64,000 bases of DNA from a virus: UHGV virus genome UHGV-1376965, one strand, 5' to 3'. The notes beneath the pieces are model-generated. The model saw nothing but the letters and a program-made list of their open reading frames with translations, did not search any database and was not told the DNA's origin. Each line of letters starts with the position of its first letter. Position 1 is the first letter of the stretch. The position numbers were made by a program, and so were the translations under genes. Below, in pieces: positions 32,816-34,362 of the stretch.

Positions 32816-33280
32816 CAGGGTTTTCGTCATGGTTAGCGACTTTGCGGCGGTTTAGAAACTGACCATTAAAGTAAATGCAAACGATGATCTGATGATGGTA
32901 GCGGCCTAAGAAGCCAGACGCCACGGGGTATGAGTCGTCCCCCGTCAAAAAATCGACCGCAGAGTGTCCCCGTCTGTGTATTAGGGAACGGGGAGGCACA
33001 ACAGGTAAGGGCGCTGGTGTGATTAACCAGATGAACGAGAAGGGGCCATCTGTTGGTCAGCGTCCTTTCCTGTTGCGTCTTCTTTTCAGCGTAACAGCGG
33101 TGCTTAACAGCACTTTGGGTACAGTTCCACGAATTTACGGGTATATCCCGTCATGCTGAAAGCGCTAATCACGCTGGAAGCCAGGGTTATGCATCCCCTG
33201 TTACCGAATTGCAGCCAGGGCGCGGTGCGCCGAAAAGCATACGGAGGTGGAAGCCCTCGCCGGAGACGTACCCGGCAAGT

Positions 33281-33356
33281 GATGGTGTAGCTCAGCGGTT
33301 AGAGCGGTTGACTGTTAATCAACGGGTCGATGGTTCAAATCCATCCACCATTGCCA
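33281..33356 (+). tRNA. tRNA-Asn (anticodon GTT)
   Basis: Hand-folded cloverleaf: acceptor GATGGTG/CACCATT, D-arm GCTCAGCGGTTAGAGC, anticodon loop CTGTTAA, T-arm GATGG-TTCAAAT-CCATC, encoded CCA. Confidence 0.85.
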
Positions 33357-33358
33357 AT

Positions 33359-33434
33359 GCCGGTTTAGCTCAGTTGGTAGAGCGCCTGCCTTGTAAGCAG
33401 GATGTCAGCGGTTCGATTCCGTTAATCGGCACCA
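33359..33434 (+). tRNA. tRNA-Thr (anticodon TGT)
   Basis: Hand-folded cloverleaf: acceptor GCCGGTT/AATCGGC, anticodon loop CTTGTAA, T-loop TTCGATT, encoded CCA. Confidence 0.85.
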
Positions 33435-34362
33435 GCACAACAGGTAAGGGTATTTTGCGACGTCGGAGATCGCCGAGCTTGGCAGAGGGTTCGAATCCCT
33501 ACGAAGTACCCTTACCGTTGTGATGAATGCGCAGGCTGATGCGCGAAAGACATTGCAGCTATTGCGGAAAAGAGCTGTTCGGCGGGGCAATTAAACGCCC
33601 GTGAGAGTCTGAAATAACCGCAAGCCGGAGATCAGCACCGGTCATCACAACACAACAGGTAAGGGCATTCTCCCTTATGGGGCTTGGCTTAAATGCATCG
33701 AGTGCTCTTACCGTTGTGATGAAGTGCAGCTCTTTGAAGCAACCAGAAGATAAGCATCTGGCTTCACAACATAAACCGCAGGAACGACCAATAAACGGTA
33801 GTCCGTATGGAGAACACCCCGTTGAGGAAGAGGCCTGGCCGGAACCGTAACCGGCACTACAACGTTGAGAACACTGGCGTAACGGGGTCATATCCCAATC
33901 TACGAATAAATGTTGCGTTGCAGCGTGACAACCAGTGTTCTCAACATTGTGGTGAATGCACAGGCTGATGTGCCGCAACTACAGTAGTGCGCGCTTTGCG
34001 GGGCTTGCTACAACCCTGTGTCGGAGTTCAGCACCGACCATCACAGTTTGATTCTCTGGCATGAGCATAACGCTGAAATAAGTCCAGCCTGGTGCGGCCC
34101 GATCACCCGCCGTTAGCTCCACGAAACGGAGCACGTAACAGGTAAGAGCATTCTCCTGTAACGGGTTCATATCCCAATCTACAGGTCCACCAAGAATGCT
34201 CTTTCCGTTGCGGTGAATGCGGCTAAGCGCACGCGGGGAAATGGTTATATCAGTCCATTCATTTCTCCTTGTTTCCCCGTCCACGGTGGATAACCAGCCA
34301 AAGGACACCGGGAGGCACCCGGCACCGCAGCTTTTTTATTCGTTAAATAATGGAGTGAGAGG

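Follow-up and report, generated by a model that had tools for sequence, protein, structure and literature searches.

The window analysed here is a 64,000-nucleotide (nt) stretch of virus genome UHGV-1376965, a P1-like phage-plasmid, and the element under study is an array of hairpin modules interleaved with tRNA genes. The tract that carries the array is 99.5-99.7% identical to vB_EcoM-813R1 and RCS47, and classical P1 matches it at ~98.6% identity across the 84% that the two have in common. In the P1 record the Pban promoters and the C1 operator Op72 are located at the very end of dmt; a palindromic self-match at 32591-32625 falls within the corresponding region of the window. Since Pban/Op72 precede the array, and no other promoter-like site was found in the tract up to position 35900, the tract appears, by homology with P1, to be the untranslated 5' leader of the C1-controlled ban operon, on the plus strand. 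Pban/Op72 is the likely start of the array-carrying transcript, and transcription of the tract is presumed to come from Pban. The array lies on the strand of tRNA-Asn, tRNA-Thr and a downstream tRNA-Met(CAT). From its 5' end the cassettes are X, M1-E1, tRNA-Asn, tRNA-Thr and then four M-E units, where M denotes a long-stem module, E the stem-closed domain that follows it (with first hairpin h1 and last hairpin h3), and X a module resembling transfer-messenger RNA (tmRNA):

32580-32625, plus strand: Pban promoters and C1 operator Op72, from the P1 annotation through the window-to-P1 alignment
~32720-32821, plus strand: 'dicF-like region' of the P1 annotation, placed by alignment to P1, just downstream of Pban/Op72
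32815-32995, plus strand: X, tmRNA-like, directly upstream of M1; a 10-codon tag, then hairpins
32994-33080, plus strand: M1, arms CACAACAGGTAAGGGCG and CGTCCTTTCCTGTTGCG (inverted repeat I2); fold -42.8 kcal/mol, z -5.4
33081-33280, plus strand: E1, a divergent spacer that keeps solely the E-type 3' hairpin CCGGAGACGTACCCGG (33260-33275)
33281-33356, plus strand: tRNA-Asn(GUU), two methods agreeing
33359-33434, plus strand: tRNA-Thr(UGU), two methods agreeing; its CCA end directly abuts the 5' arm of M2
33436-33522, plus strand: M2, fold -41.6 kcal/mol, z -5.2; insert with a T-arm-like hairpin (33486-33500) beside the 3' arm
33517-33651, plus strand: E2, closing stem GUUGUGAUG/CAUCACAAC; h1 at 33529-33544, h3 at 33625-33641
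33642-33722, plus strand: M3, fold z -5.75; absent, with E2, from classical P1
33712-33862, plus strand: E3, a short stem-closed piece (33712-33771), then a piece ending in hairpin CCGGAACCGTAACCGG (33839-33854); repeat family D2
33855-33954, plus strand: M4, fold -49.2 kcal/mol, z -7.65; different, compensating arms
33884-33896, plus strand: CAU-loop hairpin GGGGTCATATCCC in the M4 insert
33946-34047, plus strand: E4, stem-closed; h1 GCACAGGCTGATGTGC (33958-33973), h3 GTCGGAGTTCAGCACCGAC
34116-34132, plus strand: hairpin GCTCCACGAAACGGAGC, directly 5' of M5; recurs before M modules of other phages
34134-34212, plus strand: M5, fold z -6.1
34163-34175, plus strand: CAU-loop hairpin GGGTTCATATCCC in the M5 insert
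34207-34337, plus strand: E5, STnc100-like, with a T-run (34332-34337) at its end; fold z -3.4

A preliminary description, made from the letters alone, had placed here at least four hairpin modules with 12-16 bp stems, interleaved with tRNA-Asn and tRNA-Thr. The modules and both tRNA genes are where it put them, and the former withstand shuffle and fold tests. There are, however, five modules (M1-M5, plus strand, 32994-34212), and their stems are longer: with the closing stem followed into its continuation, 22-33 bp are paired. The arm AACAGGTAAGRGC is common to four of the modules and has 4 matches at up to one mismatch in the window versus 0.04 expected; none of 100 shuffles reached 4 matches. 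The arms of M4 have another sequence yet are still complementary (inverted repeat I1, 23 nt, 91%). Folding each module, a check that the preliminary description had proposed, gave z values of -5.2 to -7.7, with 0/200 shuffles equally good, and in each of M1-M5 the plus strand fold beats the minus strand fold by 4-10 kcal/mol. No copy of the arms, the h1 hairpins or the tag motif of X was found outside the tract within the window.

Each M is followed by a second stem-closed domain, E, of 105-137 nt. The motif GTTGTGRTG, right after the M arm, pairs with CAYCACAAC ~100-135 nt downstream, closing E by a 7-9 bp stem that is flanked by two hairpins: AAU and the GC hairpin h1 come first, and a CCGG-N9-CCGG hairpin, h3, comes last, directly before the closing strand. 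The short GC hairpin reported after every module is this h1. It is present after M2 (GCGCAGGCTGATGCGC, 33529-33544), after M4 (33958-33973), where one G-C pair has become A-U through a compensated change, and, as a variant, after M5 (34219-34230), but it is missing after M1 and weak after M3; it is part of the E domain and not an element of its own. The loops of h1 and h3 are complementary beyond expectation, as in a kissing contact (mean complement 3.64 versus 2.90 +/- 0.14; one double-compensated variant). This may be a mere consequence of the inverted-repeat frames described next, and we do not rely on it.

Comparison of the two junction sequences revealed how M and E are related. R_B, the frame in which E ends and M starts, is the reverse complement of R_A, in which M ends and E starts, with a score of 36; the maximum among shuffles was 30, and 0/2000 scored as high. 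Because the E-to-M frame reverse-complements the M-to-E frame, the array reads as one ~40-nt element in alternating orientation, each insert being enclosed by its flanks. Transfer RNA genes can occupy such a slot, as tRNA-Asn and tRNA-Thr do here.

To follow the pairing through the family we used fixed-register pair counts and no covariance model, as hypervariable inserts prevent a clean alignment. The closing stems of 60 distinct modules measure 15-27 bp (median 18). Among 65 distinct P1-type modules, 1044 Watson-Crick, 64 G.U and 5 A.C pairs were counted, and irregularities of the helix are conserved as well: a U.U mismatch in 54/65 modules, a U.G pair in 53/65, and a bulged A. Compensatory changes, which the preliminary description had asked for across P1-like genomes, occur at three positions of the P1-type set. 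In the lambdoid relatives 97.1% of cells are paired, slid controls reach 40-48%, and double changes are seen in six pairs; neither the paired percentage nor the covariation score was reached in 500 shuffles, although this set comprises few clades and hence few independent events. Arm types unrelated in sequence still pair, namely those of M4, phiEa2809, HK633 and locus L109. Because G.U pairs outnumber A.C pairs 64 to 5, the pair counts favour selection acting on the plus strand RNA.

The inserts held by these frames are hypervariable: there are 58 distinct M inserts (20-135 nt) and 35 E middles (20-150 nt) at <88% identity. Some of them look like parts of tRNAs. The T-arm-like hairpin AGGGTTCGAATCCCT, noticed earlier in one module, lies at 33486-33500 inside M2, and a T-loop motif is present in 10 of the 58 M inserts, M2 included, versus 0.275 expected (shuffle maximum 2). 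M4 and M5 hold instead GGGKTCATATCCC (33884-33896 and 34163-34175). The lambdoid M insert contains CGGGCTCATAACCC, which at 14/14 positions is identical to the anticodon arm of metZ, an initiator tRNA of E. coli; M4 and M5 retain three G:C pairs and the CAU of this anticodon-arm look-alike, and other variants keep the CAU-A loop in different settings. Some E middles contain nearly complete tRNA-like sequences. The suggestion that the modules are tRNA-like decoys may apply to part of the family, where a T-arm or the initiator anticodon arm is copied by the insert; 48/58 M inserts, M1 and M3 among them, have no tRNA motif. We also observed that an M insert of the Erwinia phage phiEa2809 (locus L361, 2020-2125) resembles the tRNA-like domain of tmRNA, with a D-loop-like GAGUCGAAGGG and a T-arm AGCGGGUUCAACUCCUGCU, the E. 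coli tmRNA counterpart being GCGGGUUCAACUCCCGC. A match obtained in a scan with AGAGCATCACCGG was an unrelated sequence sharing merely a 13-mer and was discarded.

Directly upstream of M1 lies X. It carries the tmRNA resume context UAAAU|GCA AAC GA and a tag frame, GCA..TAA, at 32877-32909 (ANDDLMMVAA*), and its sequence can be aligned to the 5' half of ssrA from E. coli. We found X in 292 phage records from many families, never annotated. Ten codons and a stop are kept in 36/36 distinct copies examined, which comprise 20 distinct tag sequences (others being ANDDVVLMAA, ANEEMYLAVA and ANDNEFKVAA), and copies sharing one tag differ by synonymous nucleotides. The usual place of X is after an M 3' arm and before the next M 5' arm; X therefore fills an E slot. 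Like tmRNA, X combines the resume context with a 10-codon tag of the form AN(D/E)(D/E/N)....(A/V)A plus stop and a hairpin/pseudoknot-like region after the tag. Unlike tmRNA, it has no acceptor stem, G3:U70 or CCA end that we could find, and no convincing tRNA-like domain was identified in the window, Bas80, HK633, PD38 or phiEa2809. Its scores in Rfam are sub-threshold: 24.1 bits against tmRNA_permuted, and 14-33 bits (24-33 bits in the comparison with tmRNA) for the tmRNA models on X in the window and related loci, where thresholds are 47-84. Neither the window nor four related loci gave a tmRNA call by ARAGORN. In the N4-like Escherichia phage PD38 (locus L360, 1300-2200), a ~2-kb gene-free region has several mini tRNA-like elements around X, each a T-arm with a short acceptor strand ending ACCA. 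ARAGORN makes odd calls in this region, 'tRNA-Ala(cgc)' and 'tRNA-Cys(aca)', and the tag module is spanned by a long-range complement of 9 bp, GTAGGCATG / CATGCCTAC. In Klebsiella phage Magnus (locus L357, 1160-3930), ~3 kb annotated as hypothetical proteins of 30-70 amino acids (aa) holds X and M-E modules and is probably a noncoding RNA island mis-annotated as genes.

P1-like phages differ from one another by whole cassettes, with breakpoints inside the repeated arms and frames. Classical P1 is without E2 and most of M3; Ro157c2YLVW is without M2-E2 and has an extra tRNA-Tyr; P7 and D6 have tRNA-Ser followed by another M arm. In the Salmonella phage SJ46 (locus L008, 2261-2342) the 5' half of M4 is joined to the 3' half of M5 in their shared 25-nt inner hairpin, and the inner arms of this hybrid are mismatched, which shows recombination between modules. 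The indels are accounted for by exchange within the repeats.

The units extend far beyond P1-like phages. Searches with the inner hairpin of M4/M5 and with the P1-type arm give lower bounds for contigs: the former detected a related module in at least 120 prophage contigs and 62 phage records, among them SfV, SfII, ST64B, cdtI, mEp460 and Stx2 phages, and the latter detected at least 120 further contigs. The arm-plus-h1 junction matches at least 176 phage records of unrelated groups, including Klebsiella and E. coli siphoviruses, Ackermannviridae, P22-like and lambda-like phages and phages of Erwinia, Cronobacter, Hafnia and Aeromonas; an exact 30-mer of this junction was detected in 18 species representatives, of which nearly all belong to Enterobacterales. 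A 137-nt segment shared by Stx2 and other lambdoid phages and by siphovirus IME207 matches E2 at 97-98% identity; in the lambdoid phages it lies in the leader downstream of cI, at the position of N in lambda, and in IME207 it adjoins tRNA-Ser and tRNA-Arg. The lambdoid-type module immediately precedes the leftward early operon, and part of this leader is present in 2611/5426 complete genomes of E. coli, in none of which it is annotated as RNA; Rfam has no match for it. As one example, the lambdoid phage Stx2a_1447 (locus L002, 2180-2830, downstream of cI) has no N gene at the usual place. Its PL leader contains, immediately ahead of the first gene, an M bearing a pair of T-arm-like hairpins, an E domain, a hairpin that resembles a terminator and has a U-run pairing into the following stem, and a further M in which the anticodon arm of initiator tRNA is exact.

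Elsewhere, too, the units lie in long untranslated leaders, as at PL of N-less lambdoid phages and PR' of HK633 and CUS-3, or, in Bas80 and IME207, in tRNA units behind a consensus promoter. Their orientation in annotated phages is that of local transcription, and all 20 M copies having a tRNA within 1 kb are on its strand. Within 1.5 kb of M modules, 40/47 tRNAs (a raw count) read ANN codons. We observed Thr UGU, Met/Ile2 CAU, Arg UCU, Asn GUU and Ser GCU among these, the exceptions being Ser UGA, Tyr, Leu UAA and one suppressor-like call.

The preliminary description had also listed a small-RNA family among its candidates. This agrees with conserved families in hundreds of phage records, with the compensatory changes, and with one domain, E5, that resembles STnc100. 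The covariance-model search that it suggested recovered the tRNAs and this sub-threshold STnc100 match (Rfam RF02076, 37.8 bits over model positions 31-147; gathering score 47) but called no M. E2 and E4 had no RF02076 match at E<=10, and the lambdoid copy identical to E2 had none at E<=1. STnc100 and PasD are prophage small RNAs (sRNAs) that were detected experimentally as abundant RNAs; PasD associates with Hfq and was verified on northern blots, and no function has been assigned to either (bioRxiv 10.64898/2026.05.13.724894; PMC12370729). They share the plan of E: within a closing stem xxGGUG...CACCxx, AAU leads into a first hairpin, and a variable middle separates this from a last hairpin that directly precedes the 3' closing strand. 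They are likewise prophage-borne, with tRNAs nearby and a position in late or early leaders, and the plan recurs in a true STnc100 copy (153.8 bits) that an Stx2 phage carries downstream of stx2. Canonical STnc100 has its own terminator and no preceding M hairpin, and its loops differ from the GGCUGA / AUCAGC of P1-type E domains. E5 has the T-run at 34332-34337 but lacks the STnc100 terminator hairpin (model 170-206), and the terminator scan made no call there.

With gathering and permissive thresholds, Rfam yielded on the tract and the lambdoid leader the tRNAs, sub-threshold STnc100 and tmRNA_permuted matches and miRNA-type noise on hairpins. ARAGORN and Rfam RF00005 called solely Asn, Thr and Met(CAT) in the window and no M or E module. 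By these searches M belongs to no curated RNA family. The literature searched, on tRNA decoys and tmRNA-like RNAs of phages and on the leader RNA of the P1 ban operon, contained no description of the modules, and within it the frame-and-insert organisation and the tRNA-part inserts appear to be undescribed. A hammerhead or other ribozyme, considered on account of CUGAUG...GAAA, was rejected, having no stem II and no Rfam match.

Several features adjoin the array. The dicF-like region is closed by a strong intrinsic terminator at 32786-32816 (stem 32786-32808, T-run after); Rfam gave no DicF match in it, and region and terminator together could form a separate ~190-nt sRNA from Pban. On the 3' side, 34363-35407 holds a 78-aa open reading frame (ORF) and a protein of the SPFH/Band 7 type (Pfam E 1e-30) whose N-terminus is lipoprotein-like, at the place where P1 has tciA-tciB-tciC. 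This protein is not the 'Plp' of the P1 record, which is a minus strand ORF over the modules. Elsewhere in the window, at 11637-11842, Rfam detected above threshold the C4 antisense RNA and the a1/b1 target sites of the immI region, ordinary for P1-like phages.

From the observed structures, their conservation and covariation, the plus strand bias, the co-orientation with tRNAs and the modular indels, we infer RNase III cleavage, stabilisation and protection from Rho, in a reading that we prefer at middling confidence: a polycistronic noncoding RNA (ncRNA) whose frame helices would punctuate it for processing and stability, host RNase III being the most plausible agent. Processing signals of a polycistronic tRNA transcript were among the candidates of the preliminary description. 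The Pban transcript through the tract would be untranslated, and its M and E helices would be double-stranded targets of a host enzyme, for which RNase III is the most plausible candidate. Cleavage of the precursor would release tRNA precursors and stem-capped small RNAs, the helices would shield these products from exonucleases, and they would keep the 1.7-kb untranslated leader too structured for Rho loading. At the DNA level the conserved frames would provide homology for gain, loss and exchange of cassettes, and they probably double as such homology between phages.

The M helices fit the geometry of RNase III sites, with about two turns and an internal irregularity. They resemble the processing stems found in rRNA operons and, among phages, the sites that RNase III cuts in T7 early RNA and the lambda N-leader, in which complementary flanks enclose products of an untranslated polycistronic RNA and irregular ~20-bp helices stand between units; the lambdoid position of M is that of the N-leader hairpin. 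They differ from these sites in that their arms keep their sequence across unrelated phages, for which RNase III substrates have no need, and in that the M inserts are small and hypervariable. Several points weigh against the preferred reading. RNase III needs no conserved sequence, yet arms, bulged A, U.U mismatch and U.G pair are conserved across unrelated phages and one 30-mer is exact in many genera, which suggests a sequence-specific partner. Some stems have just 15 bp, short for RNase III. The strong terminator between Pban and the array bears on how much transcription enters it. The inner arms of the SJ46 hybrid are ill-matched, so that not every copy is maintained. Finally, the conserved look-alikes of tRNA parts suggest a cargo with a function of its own.

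This last point leads to a possible, if rather doubtful, alternative, in which the modules are scaffolded mimics of translation RNAs, the stable stem displaying a part of tRNA or tmRNA so as to titrate or misdirect a host factor. The exact metZ anticodon arm of CGGGCTCATAACCC, the three G:C pairs and CAU kept in M4 and M5, the CAU-A loop of other variants, the enrichment of T-loops (10/58 inserts versus 0.275 expected), the inserts resembling the tRNA-like domain of tmRNA, the tmRNA-like tag module within the same array and the preponderance of ANN-reading tRNAs nearby (40/47) all speak for it. Against it, 48/58 inserts, and M1 and M3 of the window, are without tRNA motif, ARAGORN and Rfam call no module a tRNA or tmRNA, and there is no free CCA end. 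The target would be a guess: a tRNA-cleaving defence or toxin nuclease, a modification enzyme, SmpB or the 30S P site. Speculatively, the array could be a 'translation-RNA mimic island', a host-recognised helix with interchangeable warheads (initiator anticodon arm, T-arms, whole tRNAs). As a similarly tentative extension, such an island together with the tag RNA would divert host nucleases, toxins or quality-control factors directed at tRNA or tmRNA, or re-programme ribosome rescue, early in infection. A known RNA of comparable design is YrlA, a bacterial Y RNA: modules of the M2 type share with it a long closing stem with a bulge and a mismatch and a tRNA-like head with a T-arm, and M in general the combination of a conserved stem (protein-binding in YrlA) with a variable head, although most M inserts are not tRNA-like. 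The Rfam YrlA model (RF02553) matched no M; its sole hit falls on the two true tRNAs and, at 26.9 bits, stays below the threshold of 69. To our knowledge rsr is not known from P1, and it was not looked for in the window or the hosts.

It is unlikely that the frames are instead a DNA-level inverted-repeat element like REP/BIME, Correia/ERIC or attC, or an exchange boundary, with the RNA hairpins a by-product. The likeness is real in several respects: a ~40-nt element in alternating orientation, a variable centre, an intergenic, cassette-like arrangement with indel breakpoints inside frames, the 97-98% identity of E2 in unrelated lambdoid phages, the exact 30-mer across Enterobacterales genera, and a bulged base and mismatch that recall the extrahelical bases of attC and IS608 ends. 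However, the G.U excess over A.C (64 versus 5) and the always greater stability of the plus strand give the array an RNA bias that such elements lack; the modules are always co-oriented with the tRNAs and the operon; and the inserts are long and wholly different between copies, unlike those of miniature inverted-repeat transposable elements (MITEs). That the modules might prove to be remnants of an insertion sequence (IS), or MITEs, is not what we found, their interiors being unrelated between copies and the ORFs of the tract containing no Pfam family; the flanks were not screened more widely for integrase, transposase or RAYT, nor the modules for target duplications. Integron attC sites are poorly matched: GCACAAC fits RYYYAAC at 6/7 positions, the outer box GTTGTGG fits the R box GTTRRRY at only 5/7, and no integrase family was detected among the tested ORFs.

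Improbable, in our judgement, are nut- or put-like antitermination (anti-Rho) signals, that is, a boxA-like UGCUCUUU in the 3' arm and a boxB-like 5-bp hairpin ~12 nt later, through which the units would load Nus factors or modify RNA polymerase for read-through of the leader. The 3' arm of M5 does contain TGCTCTTT, which we take to be the core of rrn boxA, and M3 and most family members contain the shorter TGCTCTT; the boxA-like stretch is followed by GTTGTGGTGAAT and a hairpin, and the units lie in long untranslated leaders after PL, PR' and Pban, with terminators nearby. On the other hand, the stretch is base-paired within the stem, while NusB/S10 bind single-stranded boxA; the arms covary away from boxA in M4, phiEa2809 and L109; the lambdoid element occurs once per phage and not after both early promoters; and the window array is downstream of the terminator at 32786-32816.

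That the tract encodes proteins, be it the Plp and Upl of P1 (minus strand) or plus strand ORFs, is very improbable, as the preliminary description had judged: plp and upl are annotated here in P1 and RCS47 and ORFs of 104-139 aa exist, but the four tested ORFs crossing the tract have no Pfam match, P1 plp overlaps tRNA-Thr, a 173-nt cassette indel (not a multiple of three) alters the C-terminal part of plp between this phage and P1, several P1-like records (P7, D6) annotate no gene here, and protein genes across the tract were accordingly rejected.

Beyond the preliminary description, the analysis brings the two-domain unit, the alternating frame element, its spread past P1-like phages and the upstream tmRNA-like module. 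The frames span temperate and virulent phage groups, and a related part of a leader is carried by about half of the complete E. coli genomes, yet the frames are nowhere annotated as RNA and often lie under spurious 'hypothetical protein' calls, such as P1 Plp and Upl; annotation of P1-like and lambdoid phages should replace the ORFs of the tract by ncRNA features. The copy of the initiator anticodon arm and a tag module without a tRNA-like domain are unexpected, and they point to manipulated translation initiation or ribosome rescue. A portable frame presenting variable RNA inserts beside tRNAs would be a new organising principle for phage ncRNA, and the frame-insert arrays offer a testable handle on why phages carry tRNA islands.

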